A stretch of DNA of 64,000 nt, from the NCBI GenBank assembly GCA_015063845.1, contig SVTJ01000010.1, positions 9,846 through 73,845 on the forward strand, read 5' to 3'. The translations under genes were made by a program, and so were the position numbers. Positions 46,028 to 52,488 of this stretch are shown here, in pieces (the stretch's first letter is position 1; each line of letters begins with the position of its first letter). The notes beneath the pieces are model-generated. The model saw only the letters and a list, made by a program, of their open reading frames with translations, was not told the origin of the DNA and searched no databases. This DNA comes from Oscillospiraceae bacterium. GTDB lineage: Bacteria; Bacillota; Clostridia; Oscillospirales; CAG-272.

Positions 46028-46441
46028 CAAATATTACGTAAATACCTTGTCTTTTAGTGACAAAAACCCAGTATTTGAGGATATTTACGATTCTATTATA
46101 ACACAACTCCCTATATATCACAATACGATTTTCACGCATTTTACCTCTCAAAAACTAACATTTTCAATCTATTTTTCAAAAAAACGTCCTTTTTGAAAGC
46201 CTTTTTGCTCAAAATAACATCAACTTTTCAAAAATTGCCATTTTTCATTTAATTTCGCGTTTTTTGATGCGTTTTTGCCCTGATTTTGAGCAACAATTAT
46301 ACAAAATCCAAAGCAGATGTTTCACCGAGCGCGCAAAGCTTTTTGCCTATCCCTTCCCCTGCTTTTGCCCGCACTTGACACTCGGACGATTTTTTGATAC
46401 AATATTTTTCGTTGAATAACCCAACAAAAGGAATACATAAA

Positions 46442-48304
46442 ATGTCAGAAATTACAAAAATTGCCATTATAGGCGCAGGACACGCAGGCATCGAAGCGGC
46501 TCTCGCTTCGGCAAGAACGGGCATAGATACCGTTCTCTTCACCATGTCCCTCGAATCGATAGCCAATATGCCCTGCAACCCCTCAATAGGCGGTACGGGC
46601 AAAGGACATCTCGTCTACGAGATCGACGCGCTCGGCGGAGAGATGGGCAAGGCCGCTGATAAGGTCACCCTGCAATCACGCACGCTGAACCTCGGAAAAG
46701 GCGCTGCCGTTCACTCAAAGCGCGTACAAGCCGACCGCAAGCGCTATCATATAATAATGAAAGAAACCCTCGAATCGACGCCAAATCTGCGACTTGTGCA
46801 GGCAGAGATCGTCGATATAGGTGTAAAAGACGGCCATGTGTGCTCCGTAACCACAAAGCTTGGCGAGGTCTGGGAGTGCGAAGCGGCTATTATTTGCTCG
46901 GGAACCTATCTCGAGAGCCGAATTTTCGTAGGCGACGTCAATTACGAGAGCGGCCCCGACGGATTTCTTGCTTCCAAGGGCCTTTCCGCCTGCCTTGAGA
47001 ATCTTGGCATTAAGCTACTTAGATTCAAAACAGGCACGCCGTCTCGAGTTAAGAGAAGCACCATTGATTTTTCCGAGCTTGAAGTGCAGAACGGTGAGGA
47101 AAGCATCACGCCTTATTCCTCGCAGACCCCCGACGATTATTTTGACACCCTTCAGCAGCTTCCTTGCCACGTAGTATACACCAACGCCCAGACCCACCGC
47201 ATCATTAGAGACAACATCACGCGTTCGGCGATGTATTCGGGCCAAATACACGGCACGGGACCACGCTATTGCCCATCTATCGAGGACAAATTGACACGTT
47301 TTGCAGACAAAGAACGTCATCAGCTGTTTGTCGAGCCCGTCGGAGCAGACACCGAGGAGATGTACATCCAAGGTTTTTCAACATCTCTCCCCGTAGACGT
47401 CCAGCACGAGATGCTCGCATCTCTCACGGGCTTCAAAAACGCACAGATAATGCGATATGCCTACGCTATAGAGTACGATTGTATTGACCCCACTCAACTC
47501 CTTGCAACCCTTGAATTCAAAGCCATCAACGGACTTTACGGCGCAGGACAGTTCAACGGCACATCAGGCTACGAGGAAGCGGCAGCGCAAGGCCTTATAG
47601 CAGGTCTTAACGCCTCTTTAAAGATCAGAAATATGTCCCCTTTGATACTCACAAGAGCCGAAAGCTACATAGGAACTCTCATTGATGACCTCGTGACAAA
47701 GGGCACAAACGAGCCATACCGCATGATGACGTCACGTTCGGAATACAGACTGCTGCTCAGACAAGACAACGCCGACAGACGACTCACGCAAAAAGGATAT
47801 GACGCAGGGCTCGTTACAAAATCGCAATACGATGCATATCTCAAAAAGCAGGAACTCATAGACAAAGAGATCGAGCGTCTAAATACGACCTATATTTCGC
47901 CAAAGGTCGCAAACAAGCTTTTGAATAGACTCGAATTGACACCAATATCCACGGGCTTTTCCTTATCAGAGTTGCTCAAACGCCCACAGCTCACCTACGA
48001 ACAGCTCGCAGAAATCGATGCAAAACGACCCAAGCTGCCAAAAAGAGTTGTGACAACGGTCGAAGTTACGGTAAAATACGAAGGTTACATCAAGAGGCAG
48101 ATCAACGAAGTTGAACGTCAAGAAAAGCTTGAGACAAAGCGCCTGCCCGAAAGCCTCGACTATTCAGCGATCAAAGGTCTGAGAATTGAAGCGGCGCAAA
48201 AGCTTAACTCGATAAAGCCGCTGACGATCGGTCAAGCAACGCGAATCAGCGGAGTTAACCCCGCAGACATATCAGTTTTGCTTATTTATTTAGGAATGAA
48301 ATAA
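46442..48304 (+). CDS. mnmG: tRNA uridine-34 carboxymethylaminomethyl modification enzyme
   Basis: GAGHAG, MPCNPSIGG, GPRYCPSIEDK, AGQFNGTSGYEEAAAQG. Confidence 0.98.
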   Translation: MSEITKIAIIGAGHAGIEAALASARTGIDTVLFTMSLESIANMPCNPSIGGTGKGHLVYEIDALGGEMGKAADKVTLQSRTLNLGKGAAVHSKRVQADRKRYHIIMKETLESTPNLRLVQAEIVDIGVKDGHVCSVTTKLGEVWECEAAIICSGTYLESRIFVGDVNYESGPDGFLASKGLSACLENLGIKLLRFKTGTPSRVKRSTIDFSELEVQNGEESITPYSSQTPDDYFDTLQQLPCHVVYTNAQTHRIIRDNITRSAMYSGQIHGTGPRYCPSIEDKLTRFADKERHQLFVEPVGADTEEMYIQGFSTSLPVDVQHEMLASLTGFKNAQIMRYAYAIEYDCIDPTQLLATLEFKAINGLYGAGQFNGTSGYEEAAAQGLIAGLNASLKIRNMSPLILTRAESYIGTLIDDLVTKGTNEPYRMMTSRSEYRLLLRQDNADRRLTQKGYDAGLVTKSQYDAYLKKQELIDKEIERLNTTYISPKVANKLLNRLELTPISTGFSLSELLKRPQLTYEQLAEIDAKRPKLPKRVVTTVEVTVKYEGYIKRQINEVERQEKLETKRLPESLDYSAIKGLRIEAAQKLNSIKPLTIGQATRISGVNPADISVLLIYLGMK

Positions 48305-48320
48305 AGTTTCACGTGAAACA
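48305..48320. other. parS site 1
   Basis: AGTTTCACGTGAAACA versus consensus TGTTTCACGTGAAACA. Confidence 0.9.
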
Positions 48321-48332
48321 TACGGAGATACT

Positions 48333-49067
48333 ATGGAATTTAATGAATTTTACGAATATTGCCGTGCTGTATTCGAGGCAAACAAGAATTTACCCGCAGT
48401 CGACAAAGAAAAAGCAGACAAGCTATATGTCCTCACCAACAGAATGTTGGAAGTAAACGCACATATGAATTTAACAGCAATAAAGGAAGAAAAAGCAATA
48501 ATTTTGCGCCATTACGCCGATAGCTTGGCGATAAGCGAGCACATCGCTCCCAATGCAAAAGTAATAGACGTCGGCTGCGGCGCAGGCTTTCCGACACTCC
48601 CTTTGGCGATATTCAGACCCGACGTTGACATAACCGCCCTCGACAGCACCGCAAAAAGAATCAATTACGTAGCCGATACAGCGAAACTTTTGGAGCTGAG
48701 CAACGTAACCGCAATAGCAGAAAGAGCCGAAGTTTTGGCAAACAACATCGAATATCGCGAGAAATTCGACTACGCAACCGCAAGAGCAGTCGCAGCGCTC
48801 CCAATTTTGACCGAGCTTTGCATGCCGTTTGTAAAGATCGGCGGAAAATTCGTAGCAATGAAGGCGCAAAAAGCAGACAGCGAGATAAGCCTTTCTATGA
48901 CAGCAATAACAAAATGCGGCGGCAAATTGCAAGAGCGCATCGTATCTCCGCTATACAATCCCAACGGCGAAAGCGAAGAAAGAATGATAATTATATGTTC
49001 GAAAGTGGGCGCCACCCCAAAGGAACTTCCGCGACACTACTCAAAAATCAGCAAAAAACCGCTGTGA
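48333..49067 (+). CDS. rsmG: 16S rRNA m7G527 methyltransferase
   Basis: MNLTAI, HYADSL, DVGCGAGFP, ARAVA; follows mnmG. Confidence 0.96.
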   Translation: MEFNEFYEYCRAVFEANKNLPAVDKEKADKLYVLTNRMLEVNAHMNLTAIKEEKAIILRHYADSLAISEHIAPNAKVIDVGCGAGFPTLPLAIFRPDVDITALDSTAKRINYVADTAKLLELSNVTAIAERAEVLANNIEYREKFDYATARAVAALPILTELCMPFVKIGGKFVAMKAQKADSEISLSMTAITKCGGKLQERIVSPLYNPNGESEERMIIICSKVGATPKELPRHYSKISKKPL

Positions 49068-49083
49068 CACAGATCAACACCAA

Positions 49084-49168
49084 GGTTTCACGTGAAACCT
49101 TGGTGTTTTTTCTTTACATTGTTCCACGTGAAACGTTTGTATCCGTTTTCGACGTTCCACGTGAAACA
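49084..49168. other. Cluster of three parS sites (49084-49099, 49120-49135, 49153-49168)
   Basis: GGTTTCACGTGAAACC, TGTTCCACGTGAAACG, CGTTCCACGTGAAACA; the first is the centre of a terminator-like palindrome (49076-49107). Confidence 0.92.
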
Positions 49169-49193: not shown

Positions 49194-49222
49194 TTGCAAA
49201 AGCAAACTTATTGTGGTATAAT
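49194..49222 (+). promoter_or_regulatory. Sigma-A promoter of par operon
   Basis: TTGCAA-17-TATAAT with extended TG. Confidence 0.7.
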
Positions 49223-49266: not shown

Positions 49267-50028
49267 ATGGCAAAGATCATTTCACTCGCCAACCAAAAGG
49301 GCGGAGTCGGCAAAACCACTTCCTGTGTCAATATCGCCGCTTCTCTCGGTTTACTTGGCAATAGAGTTTTAATAATCGACCTTGACCCCCAGGGTAATAC
49401 CACAAGCGGTGTTGGCATTACAAAGCGCGGCTTGTCGGGCTCTACCAAAGAGCTCCTCAACGGAGAAATGGGAGTAAAAGATATAATACGAGAGACGCCC
49501 TACGAGAATTTGTGGGCTATTCCCGCAAACACAACACTCACAAGTGCAGAATTCGAGCTTTTTGACTTTGATGACAGCGAATATCGCATGAAAAAGGCTC
49601 TTGAGCCTATTATGGATGATTTCGATTACGTTCTTATCGACTGTCCTCCCTCCCTTGGCAGACTGACAGTAAACGCGCTCACGGCAAGCGATGCCGTTAT
49701 AGTTCCAATGCAGTGCGAATTTTACGCTCTTGAAGGACTTTCGCAGTTGATGATAACCGTAAAGCTTATCCAGAAGCACTACAACCCCTCGCTCACGGTA
49801 AGCGGAATACTCGTAACTATGTATAACGGCAGACTTCTGCTCTCTATGCAGGTAATCAACGAGCTCAAGAAGCATTACCAGGACAAGCTCTTTGAAACTA
49901 AGATCTCAAGAAACGTTAAGCTTTCAGAAGCTCCCAGCTTCGGAAAACCCGTTTACTATCACGACAGAAACTCAAAGGGCGCTAAGGAATATCTCGAAGT
50001 TGCAAAAGAAATAATTGCACGCATATAA
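49267..50028 (+). CDS. parA: Chromosome partition ATPase Soj/ParA
   Basis: NQKGGVGKTT, DLDPQGN, DCPPSLG, EAPSFG. Confidence 0.97.
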   Translation: MAKIISLANQKGGVGKTTSCVNIAASLGLLGNRVLIIDLDPQGNTTSGVGITKRGLSGSTKELLNGEMGVKDIIRETPYENLWAIPANTTLTSAEFELFDFDDSEYRMKKALEPIMDDFDYVLIDCPPSLGRLTVNALTASDAVIVPMQCEFYALEGLSQLMITVKLIQKHYNPSLTVSGILVTMYNGRLLLSMQVINELKKHYQDKLFETKISRNVKLSEAPSFGKPVYYHDRNSKGAKEYLEVAKEIIARI

Positions 50029-50037
50029 GGAGGTATT

Positions 50038-50262
50038 ATGGCAAACAAAAACTCAGGACTTGGAAGAGGCCTCGACGATCTGCTGGACGATAACCTTCCC
50101 ACAAAAAGAGTAGGAAAGCCCCTGGTCATTCCAAAAGGCGAGGTATCTCAAGGCACAACCACCGTAAAGCCCGTAAATACGACTATTTACGACACAAAAA
50201 CCAAGCCTCTCTACGAAACCAAGCCACGCACACGCAGCGTAAAATCAAATTTTAAAAAATAA
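50038..50262 (+). CDS. 74-aa basic protein carrying a ParB-type N-terminal motif only
   Basis: AAGGAGGT SD; MANKNSGLGRGLDDLLDDN followed by a Lys/Thr/Pro-rich tail. Confidence 0.8.
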   Translation: MANKNSGLGRGLDDLLDDNLPTKRVGKPLVIPKGEVSQGTTTVKPVNTTIYDTKTKPLYETKPRTRSVKSNFKK

Positions 50263-50274
50263 AGGCGGTATACT

Positions 50275-51165
50275 ATGGCAAAGAAAGCAGCGGGTCTCGG
50301 AAGAGACTTTTACTCGATATTCGACGATAATATACTCGAAGCAAAGAAAGGCGCGGCTGAAAACATTAGAATTTCAGACATAGAGCCAAGACACGATCAG
50401 CCCAGAAAGACATTTGACAAAGAGCCCCTTGAAGCGCTCGCAGATTCAATCGCAACGTATGGAGTTCTTCAGCCGATAATCGTGCGCGAAAGCACGCTTG
50501 TTGAGGGCACGTATGAGATAATCGCAGGTGAGCGCCGTTGGAGAGCATCAAAAATGGCAGGTCTTACAGAAATTCCCGCGGTTATATTTGATGGCGACGA
50601 TCTCAAGGCAGCACAAGTTGCTCTTATTGAAAACATCCAGCGCGAAGACCTCAATGCAGTTGAGGAAGCGGAAGGATACGGTGCGCTTATAGACCGTTTC
50701 GGTCTTACCCAGGATCAGGTAGCAAAGCAGGTCGGAAAAGACCGTTCTACCATCACTAACGCGCTCCGTTTGTTAAAGCTTCCCGAGGAAGTTCGCGAAA
50801 TGCTCAAGGACGGAGATATCTCCGCAGGTCACGCAAGAGCCTTGCTCGCGCTTGACAGTGAGGAGCTCATGATAGAATGCGCACACAAGATAGTTGAGCG
50901 TTCCATGTCGGTCCGCGAGGTCGAAGCTATGGTGCAGCGCATAAAGAACCGCAGAGAAACGATAGTAGAGGATGCAGTACACCCTCAGATCAAGGCACAT
51001 ATGAAGGAGCTCGAGCATAGGGCAATGTCCGCTCTCGGCAGAAAGGTCCGCATCTCCCGTTCCTCTCACAAGAAGGTTCTTGAGCTTACATATTCCGACG
51101 ACGAAGATCTCGAAGCTCTGCTCAAATCCTTGTGCGGAGACGATATATTCGCAGAAAACAATTAA
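50275..51165 (+). CDS. parB: Chromosome partition protein Spo0J/ParB
   Basis: QPRKTF, GVLQP, AGERRWRA, ENIQREDL, HTH RSTITNALRLL, GHARALL. Confidence 0.97.
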   Translation: MAKKAAGLGRDFYSIFDDNILEAKKGAAENIRISDIEPRHDQPRKTFDKEPLEALADSIATYGVLQPIIVRESTLVEGTYEIIAGERRWRASKMAGLTEIPAVIFDGDDLKAAQVALIENIQREDLNAVEEAEGYGALIDRFGLTQDQVAKQVGKDRSTITNALRLLKLPEEVREMLKDGDISAGHARALLALDSEELMIECAHKIVERSMSVREVEAMVQRIKNRRETIVEDAVHPQIKAHMKELEHRAMSALGRKVRISRSSHKKVLELTYSDDEDLEALLKSLCGDDIFAENN

Positions 51166-51207: not shown

Positions 51208-52488
51208 ATGTTAGACATCAGATATATTAAGGAAAATCCCGATGAGGTAATAGCAAGACTTGCAAAGAAGGGTAAGGACGCAAAGATAGAGATCGAGCAG
51301 ATACTCGCACTTGACGCCGAAAGAAGAGCTCTTATCGCCGAGACCGAGGCTATAAAGGCAGAGCAGAATAAGATGAACAAGCTCATTCCCCAGTACAAGA
51401 AAGAGGGAAAGGACGTTTCCGCTATCTTTGTACAGATGAAGGAAATGGGCGCTAAGACAAAGGCTATCGACGAAAAGCTTAAGGAAGTTGAGACACAGTT
51501 TACTTCCGTAATGCTTGGACTTCCCAATCTTCCCGATGAGGATCTTCTCGCAGGCGGTAAGGAAAACAACGAGCCCCTGCGTTACTTCGGCGAACCCAAG
51601 CAGTTTGACTTTGAGCCTAAGAACCATGTTGACCTTTGCACCGATCTCGGTCTTATAGACTACAAGAGAGGCGCAAAGCTTTCGGGCGCGGGCTTCTGGA
51701 TCTATCGCGGAATGGGCGCAAGACTTGAGTGGGCGCTCCTTAACTACTTTATCGATACACACCTCGGCAACGGCTATGAGCTCATGCTCGTTCCTCATAT
51801 GCTCGGATACGAGTGCGGACTTACGGCAGGACAGTTCCCGAAGTTTGCAGAGGACGTTTACTGGCTGGAGACGGCAGAGGACGAGAGACACCGCTTTATG
51901 CTTCCCACAGCTGAAACAGCGCTTGTTTCTCTCCACAGAGACGAGATACTCACAGAGGCAGATCTTCCTCGCAAGTATATAAGCTACACACCTTGCTTCC
52001 GTCGCGAGGCAGGAAGCTACCGCGCAGACGAGAGAGGTATGGTAAGAGGACACCAGTTCAACAAGGTCGAGATGGTACAGTACACTCTCCCCGAGAAGAG
52101 CGACGAAGCATTTGAGGAGCTGGTTACAAACGCAGAGAACCTTGTCAAGGGTCTCGGCTTCCACTTCAGAACAGTCAAGCTCGCGGCAGAGGACTGCTCC
52201 GCATCTATGGCGAGAACCTATGATATCGAGATCAATATCCCCTCTATGGACGGCTACAAGGAGGTTTCCTCCGTATCCAACGCGCGTGACTATCAGGCTC
52301 GCAGAGGTATGATGAGAGTAAGACGCGAGAACGGAAAGACCGAATTCGTGCACACCCTCAACGGGTCTGGTCTTGCGACCAGCCGTGTTCTCCCCGCTCT
52401 CGTTGAGCAGAACCAGCTTGCAGACGGATCCGTTGTAGTTCCCGAGGTCCTTCGCAAGTATATCGGCGTAGATATAATCAAAAAGTAA
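51208..52488 (+). CDS. serS: Seryl-tRNA synthetase
   Basis: N-terminal coiled coil, PTAE, FRREAG, HQFNKVE, HTLNGSGLA. Confidence 0.98.
   Translation: MLDIRYIKENPDEVIARLAKKGKDAKIEIEQILALDAERRALIAETEAIKAEQNKMNKLIPQYKKEGKDVSAIFVQMKEMGAKTKAIDEKLKEVETQFTSVMLGLPNLPDEDLLAGGKENNEPLRYFGEPKQFDFEPKNHVDLCTDLGLIDYKRGAKLSGAGFWIYRGMGARLEWALLNYFIDTHLGNGYELMLVPHMLGYECGLTAGQFPKFAEDVYWLETAEDERHRFMLPTAETALVSLHRDEILTEADLPRKYISYTPCFRREAGSYRADERGMVRGHQFNKVEMVQYTLPEKSDEAFEELVTNAENLVKGLGFHFRTVKLAAEDCSASMARTYDIEINIPSMDGYKEVSSVSNARDYQARRGMMRVRRENGKTEFVHTLNGSGLATSRVLPALVEQNQLADGSVVVPEVLRKYIGVDIIKK

Follow-up and report, generated by a model that had tools for sequence, protein, structure and literature searches.

A conserved small gene between parA and parB in a lineage of uncultured gut Clostridia, and its candidate role as a ParB-derived modulator of ParA

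The ParABS system is viewed as a three-part machine, in which the peptide that activates ParA works only within ParB clamps that have been loaded at parS and closed by cytidine triphosphate (CTP). In a 64,000-nucleotide stretch of the genome of an Oscillospiraceae bacterium (assembly GCA_015063845.1, contig SVTJ01000010.1, positions 9,846 to 73,845 of the forward strand; hereafter the window), parA and parB are separated by an open reading frame of 74 codons at positions 50038-50262, called mini here. The original prediction, made from the sequence of the window, described this frame as a stand-alone copy of the N-terminal, ParA-activating peptide of ParB and proposed that it serves as a parS-independent activator or decoy of ParA, in a four-part ParABS variant with split functions. 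The locus raises two questions: is a free copy of the activating peptide a genuine component of a par operon, and what could such a peptide do to ParA?

Here we present a computational analysis of mini, its relatives and its neighbouring genes. On the sequence evidence, we read mini as a fourth component, conserved and specific to its lineage, of a ParABS locus on the chromosome, and its action on ParA would follow from its resemblance to ParB. The earlier interpretation is partly supported. The same peptide appears to have been conserved as a free, apparently well-translated product of the operon through the history of the genus, while ParB's own copy of it changes. The hosts of the gene form an uncultured lineage of gut Clostridia.

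A third gene in the par operon

Mini is encoded on the forward strand, begins with ATG, and lies 9 nucleotides downstream of the stop codon of parA and 12 nucleotides upstream of the start of parB, as had been described. The strong initiation attributed to the frame was confirmed: upstream of its start, TAAGGAGG overlaps the parA stop codon, and the Shine-Dalgarno sequence AAGGAGG at 50027-50033 has an AGGAGG core that ends 4 nucleotides before the ATG and is the best of the three genes. Across the genus, a match to AGGAGG of at least 5 of 6 positions was found upstream of mini in 36 of 40 distinct regions; parA has such a match in 6 of 33 regions and parB in 13 of 34. By this measure, mini appears to be translated better than the other two genes of the operon.

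The frame is neither absent nor decayed within the genus, as a survey of the parA-parB intervals of relatives and of their substitution rates established. It is found between parA and parB, directly downstream of parA and open, in all 50 genus loci recovered (20 from genome searches and 30 from metagenome-assembled genomes [MAGs]), which represent 40 distinct sequences. A whole-genome search matched mini in 19 of the 24 other species of the genus; the five genomes that gave no match are 68-83 % complete. A word-indexed protein search returned 40 proteins of 73-79 residues with 53-100 % identity to mini, none of which carries a functional name. The pattern RGL[GD][DE]LLxDN, scanned in one genome per species across GTDB, gave 35 loci, 30 of them in MAGs labelled as uncultured 'Clostridia', 'Oscillospiraceae' or 'Eubacteriales' that come, going by their record descriptions, mostly from the guts of ruminants and other animals; each of these loci has the order parA-mini-parB. 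The remaining five loci are in Leptospira, and the one of them that was examined (L090:2339-3241) was rejected as a chance match. There, a 300-residue protein with a signal-peptide-like start contains SRGLDDLLADNKP, the shared part is limited to ...RGLDDLLADN with no LG before the arginine, and neither ParA nor ParB is encoded near the match. The back-translated pattern alone is therefore not specific.

An exhaustive profile search of 1.84 billion protein representatives yielded 73 mini matches at E<=1e-3, 56 of them at <=1e-10. All but one of the 73 are 39-160 residues long, and most match the profile from end to end. Fused mini-ParB forms were considered and rejected, as no protein of ParB length occurs among the 73 matches. 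The one long match (P0101, 1894 residues) is repetitive, with sub-threshold stretches to unrelated Pfam families. In a protein atlas, whole mini retrieved only unnamed small-protein clusters, and the value of 0.82 for the C-terminal third of one homologue (P0041) is at chance level.

Substitution rates were computed for 11 species pairs in which the synonymous rate (dS) of parA is below 1. The ratio of nonsynonymous to synonymous rates (dN/dS) of mini was 0.046-0.213 in 8 of the 11 pairs, its dS being saturated in the other three, and for the same species pairs the ratio was 0.010-0.086 for ParA and 0.020-0.108 for ParB. The dN of mini is several-fold above that of its neighbours, yet purifying selection is clear. 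With mini, the par operon has a third, genuine protein-coding gene.

The relation of its product to ParB is confined to the N-terminus. The start of mini aligns with that of the window's ParB without a gap, as predicted, with 11 of the first 19 residues identical, and BLASTP of these two window proteins, a single comparison, gives 11 identities over 26 positions without gaps (E 7e-05). Alignment of the mini and ParB family profiles with hhalign reaches 96.5 % probability (E 7.5e-10) over 34 columns (mini 1-34, ParB 1-35; positions 50038-50139 in the window), beyond which the homology stops, and the sole PDB match of the mini family profile is to the first 16 residues of Thermus thermophilus Spo0J (1vz0, E 0.012). 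A Pfam and NCBIfam scan of the 74-residue protein at E<=1 found no match, and in particular neither ParB_N/CTPase nor a helix-turn-helix (HTH) domain; the CTPase N-domain (Box I-III, GERRxRA), HTH and dimerisation domain that define ParB are missing, in agreement with the original prediction. The Noc model TIGR04285 did not match mini either, which bears the ParA-binding motif without the Noc body. That motif, defined in the accessible part of PMC12704722 as (L|F|I)G[KR]G(L|F|I), occurs as LGRGL at residues 8-12 of mini; the window's ParB reads LGRDF at the equivalent place, as had been noticed, and falls outside the definition. To judge from these alignments, mini is a derivative of the ParA-binding peptide of ParB and is not a member of the ParB family.

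Distribution, origin and the altered motif of ParB

The family profile was run against 301 genomes sampled from the order and matched 63 of them at E<=0.01. Besides the window's own gene, the matches listed all lie in ParB-sized frames (283-374 residues), with the exception of a 97-residue frame located 179 bases from a contig end. Of 17 genomes that represent the 12 remaining genera of the family, four were matched, each in a ParB frame. The four sister-genus loci that were fetched (L056-L059) have the order noc-like gene, parA, parB, with parA and parB adjacent or overlapping, and the start of their ParB reads ...LG(K/R)GL(G/D)AI(F/L)xDN. No stand-alone copy of mini was found in the 17 sister-genus genomes or in about 280 others from the order, and when 400 genomes of the class were searched with an N-terminally extended subgroup of minis, only the N-termini of ParB were matched. 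Mini is confined to one genus-level lineage. A mobile origin was rejected after tblastn of mini found nothing at E<=0.01 in collections of plasmids and phages. The simplest history suggested by the sequences is a tandem duplication of the 5' end of parB (about 35 codons) in the ancestor of the genus, after which the upstream copy would have gained a new C-terminal end.

ParB's own ParA-binding motif is changed in exactly the lineage that bears mini. All 36 distinct ParBs of the genus read xGRxFY, with phenylalanine followed by tyrosine in each, and the genus-wide form is LGRxFYxI(F/M/Y/L)xDN; in the window this altered motif comprises ParB residues 7-19 (GLGRDFYSIFDDN, positions 50293-50331). 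The motif glycine is kept in 17 of the 36 (16 LGRGF and 1 IGRGF) and replaced in 19 (12 LGRDF, 5 LGRSF, 1 LGRQF, and 1 LGRTF). For comparison, ParB loci were sampled from the order's other families by similarity to ParB residues 41-296, so that the N-terminus was outside the query; of the 29 obtained, 26 could be parsed. LG[KR]G[LIF] is present in 24 of these, SGRGL and LGSGI in the other two, and a residue other than glycine at the glycine position in none of the 26. The original prediction had described the motif of ParB as drifted. The loss of glycine in about half of the genus ParBs bears this out, but the arginine and the four hydrophobic positions are kept and the altered version is itself conserved. 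Since the arginine persists and each of the four key positions is still hydrophobic, we read the motif as retuned rather than lost. For the same reason, the proposed "split functions" of mini and ParB are not borne out: ParB retains a conserved motif of its own.

A putative peptide modulator of ParA

Mini has two conserved ends joined by a variable linker. The consensus of the N-terminal block is M-x-K-K-x-S-G-L-G-R-G-L-(G/D)-(D/E)-L-L-x-D-N-x-P, and the window's protein carries L8-G-R10-G-L12-x-x-L15-L16 followed by D18-N19-x-P21. In an alignment of 25 mini sequences, L8, G9, R10, L12, L15, D18, and N19 are invariant, and conservation is 90 % or higher at G7, G11, L16, P21, and V30. The canonical LGRGL-x2-LL motif is kept, with LGRGL in 38 of 40 distinct minis. 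Residues 35-61 (positions 50140-50220) form the linker, which is predicted to be disordered and which varies across the family from about 20 to more than 100 residues in length and from about +7 to -20 in charge. The final residues 62-74 (KPRTRSVKSNFKK, positions 50221-50259) form a conserved basic motif, the C-motif, whose family consensus over the last ~12 residues is (P)(K/R)x(R/K)S(L/V)KA(N/L/V)F(K/R), often followed by x(F/Y)K, and which was found by pattern in 48 of 61 representatives. In AlphaFold2 predictions from a 61-sequence alignment, the mean predicted local distance difference test value was 65 and the predicted template modelling score (pTM) 0.19, and the only helices, at residues 12-18 and 68-72, correspond to the two motifs. 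The longer variants of the C-motif (10-11 residues, for example SLKA(L/V/I)FRxFK) have helical hydrophobic moments of 0.5-0.75 (z 1.3-2.3 relative to shuffles). By its sequence, the C-motif is a second conserved end of the protein, basic and partly amphipathic.

The tail of mini had been described as basic and probably disordered. Disorder of the linker is indeed predicted, but the last ~12 residues are a conserved motif, and the basicity of the whole protein is not conserved. Net charge in the family ranges from +12 to -16, while the last 15 residues remain at +4 to +5 in both net-positive and net-negative members; the conserved property is therefore a discrete C-motif and not general basicity. 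In one branch (L019, L020, P0054-P0097) the linker reaches 60-110 residues and is strongly acidic (to -20), with both end motifs kept, and such a linker may serve as a spacer or entropic tether. A separate subgroup (P0105-P0111) has an extension of 20-30 residues (MIIRK... or MAIIYKK...) before GLGRGL and a C-terminus that reads ...YVKTPKRSRS or ...KTNK; on the one contig recovered for it (L109:402-590), the order is parA-mini-parB-serS and the mini start overlaps the parA stop codon.

Several properties of the activating peptide are described for Myxococcus xanthus ParB in the accessible part of PMC12462528. Mutations indicate that L11, R13, L15, L18, and I19 are needed for ParA binding, R13 touches an adjacent acidic patch of ParA, and a 20-residue ParB peptide is enough to bind and stimulate ParA. 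The ParA dimer offers two sites for the peptide, and single peptides are far weaker than CTP-closed dimeric clamps, which juxtapose two of them. The spacing of L8, R10, L12, L15, and L16 in mini matches the M. xanthus pattern, and mini shares with activators of this class a hydrophobic-basic-hydrophobic helix pattern within a disordered terminus and a gene that adjoins the cognate parA.

These features lead us to favour, by a modest measure, the view that mini is a disordered, two-ended protein, born by duplication of parB, that binds ParA at the ParB site and modulates the ParA cycle independently of parS. The N-terminal LGRGL-x2-LL helix would be an unchanged copy of the ParB peptide that docks in a hydrophobic pocket at the interface of the ATP-bound ParA dimer, and mini would for this reason most likely bind ParA (Soj) at the ParB site with no need for parS or CTP. 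With one motif per chain it would be a weak activator. Given that its translation also appears to be the strongest in the operon, mini would, if abundant, mainly compete with ParB clamps for ParA. The C-motif would act as a second docking element that places the peptide on a membrane, DNA or protein surface, and wherever the C-motif concentrates mini, hydrolysis of ATP by ParA could be triggered and ParA released from the nucleoid. Judged from the composition of the C-motif, a membrane is the leading candidate for this surface, DNA and a protein partner such as ParB are each somewhat less probable and about equal to one another, and a small share falls to other surfaces; the sign of the effect on ParA and the partner of the C-motif are the most conjectural parts of this view. 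A complex prediction with two ParA, two ATP and two mini chains reached a best score of 0.29 (mark 0.32); it was run without controls and is used neither for nor against binding.

Several observations weigh against this view. The motif of ParB is conserved within the genus, with L8, R10, F12, and Y13 at 90 % or more and G9, I15, D18, and N19 invariant, and ParB therefore probably still engages ParA itself and requires no helper. Because single peptides stimulate ParA far less than closed clamps, a monomeric mini may change little unless many copies are present or they cluster. In the subclade of the window the C-motif reads SVKSNFKK and is only weakly amphipathic (moment 0.50, z 0.9 relative to shuffles), three distinct sequences from five loci (L003/L071, L007, and L070) end in ...K(S/T)LK without the ANFKK part, and the N-terminally extended subgroup has a different basic C-terminal end. 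As to expression, a search for sequencing runs listed 15 that hold DNA and none that holds RNA.

The alternative that survives best accepts mini as a functional small protein but holds that its N-terminal block acts elsewhere, on ParB (through clamp closing or the juxtaposed N-peptides), DnaA, SMC or the divisome, or in a role unrelated to ATPase activation. The state of Soj controls DnaA in B. subtilis. A target other than ParA would accommodate the conservation that extends past the minimal motif (to D18, N19, P21, and V30, each invariant or with a conservation of 90 % or more), the C-motif, which implies at least one further partner, and the conserved motif of ParB, by which ParA may already be fully served. 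However, the most constrained residues of mini are those that bind ParA in characterised ParBs, as far as the accessible part of PMC12462528 describes them, and the gene always directly follows parA. The D18-N19 extension is common to ParB of the same family, which indicates that it was inherited from the ParB N-terminus and is not new. We regard this alternative as unlikely.

Less probable still is a general basic protein that associates with the nucleoid, in which the resemblance to the start of ParB is incidental and a basic body coats DNA. The net charge of +8 of the window's mini and the average of +5.6 among 28 members of at most 90 residues would fit such a protein, but the 29 members of more than 100 residues average -5.5, owing to acidic linkers, and positive charge is constant only in the last 15 residues; moreover, no DNA-binding domain was found with Pfam or NCBIfam, and no folded core is predicted. 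The notion that mini is a decaying remnant, or an upstream frame that only couples translation of parB to that of parA and yields a functionless peptide, draws on its clear origin from a partial parB duplication, its spacing of 9 and 12 nucleotides from its neighbours and its restriction to one lineage, but is already disfavoured, and in our judgement very improbable, given dN/dS ratios of 0.05-0.21, a frame open in 50 of 50 loci despite lengths of 39-160 residues, two motifs conserved at the amino-acid level across ~40-100 % identity, and sister genera that couple parA and parB directly without such a frame. Nothing was seen of an overlapping functional RNA or DNA element that could explain the codon constraint.

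If mini does modulate ParA through its two ends, one specific form of that action can be sketched, although we hold it to be rather doubtful. The C-terminal helix would hold many copies of mini on the membrane or another fixed surface, where they would capture and fire ParA-ATP dimers and so shape the ParA gradient on the nucleoid from the periphery, independently of parS. Were this so, a protein of 74 residues would couple chromosome segregation to cell geometry and would be a minimal natural counterpart of PadC and of polar scaffolds that sequester ParA, and the retuned LGRxFY of ParB would keep the two activators non-equivalent. The genome of the window, whose assembly is 96.7 % complete, offers a setting for a modulator of this kind. 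No MinD above the TIGR01968 cut-off was found in it, the best matches being ParA (63 bits), a P-loop protein on contig C8 and a short match on contig C6. The ParA-like match on C8 was rejected as a MinD or ParA; it lies in a capsule-type operon, lacks the ParA signature and looks like a P-loop protein of the tyrosine-kinase type. No chromosomal ParA-type ATPase besides that encoded by parA was found in this genome, and no Noc-like paralogue. The lack of a MinD, a second ParA and a Noc-like paralogue makes a peripheral modulator of ParA plausible, if unproven.

Related systems and the surroundings of the locus

Mini shares its motif, placed at the extreme N-terminus, with the N-terminal peptides of chromosomal ParB/Spo0J proteins such as T. 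thermophilus Spo0J (1vz0) and residues 1-20 of M. xanthus ParB. It differs from them as the product of a separate gene, with a C-motif of its own and no CTPase fold, HTH or dimerisation domain, and would therefore be neither loaded at parS nor paired by clamp closure. In size and N-terminal tail mini resembles ParG of TP228 and omega of pSM19035, type Ib proteins of about 70-76 residues in which an arginine within a flexible N-terminal tail stimulates the cognate ParA-type ATPase. These proteins fold as ribbon-helix-helix dimers on centromere repeats, in contrast to mini, which has no predicted fold (pTM 0.19), no Pfam match and a variable linker. McdB and MinE are further activating proteins of ParA/MinD ATPases. 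In M. xanthus, PomX acts with PomY as one of two activators of PomZ, through a short, positively charged N-terminal peptide, according to the accessible parts of PMC7993993 and 10.1101/2025.12.01.691545; ParG is mentioned in that of PMC12462528. The PomX, McdB, and MinE systems differ in that they position division sites or organelles by means of peptides that are not from ParB, whereas the peptide of mini is derived from ParB and would give the chromosomal ParA itself a second partner.

The nearest functional analogy for a mini anchored by its C-motif is PadC of M. xanthus, which carries the ParA-binding motif, as described in the accessible part of PMC12704722. PadC is a second bearer of the motif besides ParB and recruits ParA to a bactofilin scaffold independently of parS, but it has retained a CTPase domain of the ParB type and a part that binds bactofilin; mini has neither and is encoded inside the parAB operon. 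The same part of PMC12704722 describes Noc as lacking the ParA-binding motif and binding the membrane. Noc, also a product of parB duplication in Firmicutes, with an amphipathic helix directed to the membrane, is complementary to mini: the ParA-binding motif was lost from Noc, which retained the domains for CTPase, HTH and dimerisation, and mini kept only that motif. A Noc-like gene and mini coexist in some members of the genus. Should the peptide bind ParA, nature would have provided an experiment on how the ParA gradient responds to an activator or competitor that is not tethered. Mini would also show cleanly how a gene can be born when another is partly duplicated, as the complement of Noc. 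With the C-terminal membrane-targeting helices of the MinD/FtsA type, the C-motif was compared by hydrophobic moment only (0.50, z 0.9 in the window). The Sci protein of SGI1 was rejected as a counterpart, being, in the accessible part of PMC10954446, an unrelated small helical incompatibility factor. A literature search that did not extend to the supplements of PMC12704722 and PMC12462528 found no description of a stand-alone protein with the ParA-binding motif. The survey in PMC12704722, to judge from its accessible part, is centred on the ParB-CTPase fold and would miss such proteins; others may likewise have been missed, since surveys centred on that domain cannot detect proteins without the fold.

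The genes parA, mini, and parB lie within a run of forward-strand genes that comprises mnmG (46394-48304), rsmG (48333-49067), parA (also soj, 253 residues, 49267-50028, with a PF13614 match at 2.3e-63), mini, parB (also spo0J, 296 residues, 50275-51165), and serS (51208-52488). ParB has the ParB_N domain (CTPase fold, GERRWRA) and HTH_ParB; it matches PF02195 (3.9e-33), PF17762 (2.3e-39) and TIGR00180 (188 bits, cut-off 58) and scores below the Noc cut-off (252 vs 315 bits). In the 200-nucleotide spacer between rsmG and parA, a promoter-like site on the forward strand (49194-49222; TTGCAA, a 17-nucleotide spacer and a TG-extended TATAAT, a 10/12 match to consensus) lies 45 nucleotides upstream of parA, and no terminator-like site was found on the forward strand between it and the end of parB. 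Because of this promoter-like site and the lack of an internal terminator, parA, mini, and parB look co-transcribed.

The scan for parS used TGTTNCACGTGAAACA, which we take to be the consensus. Three parS-like sites were found in the rsmG-parA spacer (49084-49099, 49120-49135, and 49153-49168), and a palindrome with one mismatch to TGTTNCACGTGAAACA lies between mnmG and rsmG (48305-48320). Over the whole window there were 9 strand-matches with at most two mismatches, where 0.15 were expected, and none of 100 shuffles reached 9. By its sequence features the locus is an apparent parA-mini-parB operon behind four parS-like sites. The first site in the spacer (49084-49099) also forms the stem of a terminator-like hairpin after rsmG.

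A Noc-like ParB paralogue is encoded upstream of parA in the sister genera and in part of the genus (L003, L007, L010, L015-L020, L070-L072, L075, L077, and others). It is missing in the subclade of the window (L001, L004, L005, L011, L014, and L062-L069), where rsmG directly precedes parA. The idea that mini was gained to compensate for the loss of Noc was rejected; many species of the genus that bear mini keep the Noc-like gene, and the presence of mini does not track the loss.

Two other ParB_N matches occur in the genome of the window, both in 296-residue proteins without the LGRGL motif. Each of the two adjoins a large serine recombinase at a contig end (C17:77000-79949, locus L060, and C19:1-2500, locus L061) in nearly identical modules; probably a single integrative mobile element is present here in two copies, at which the assembly broke.

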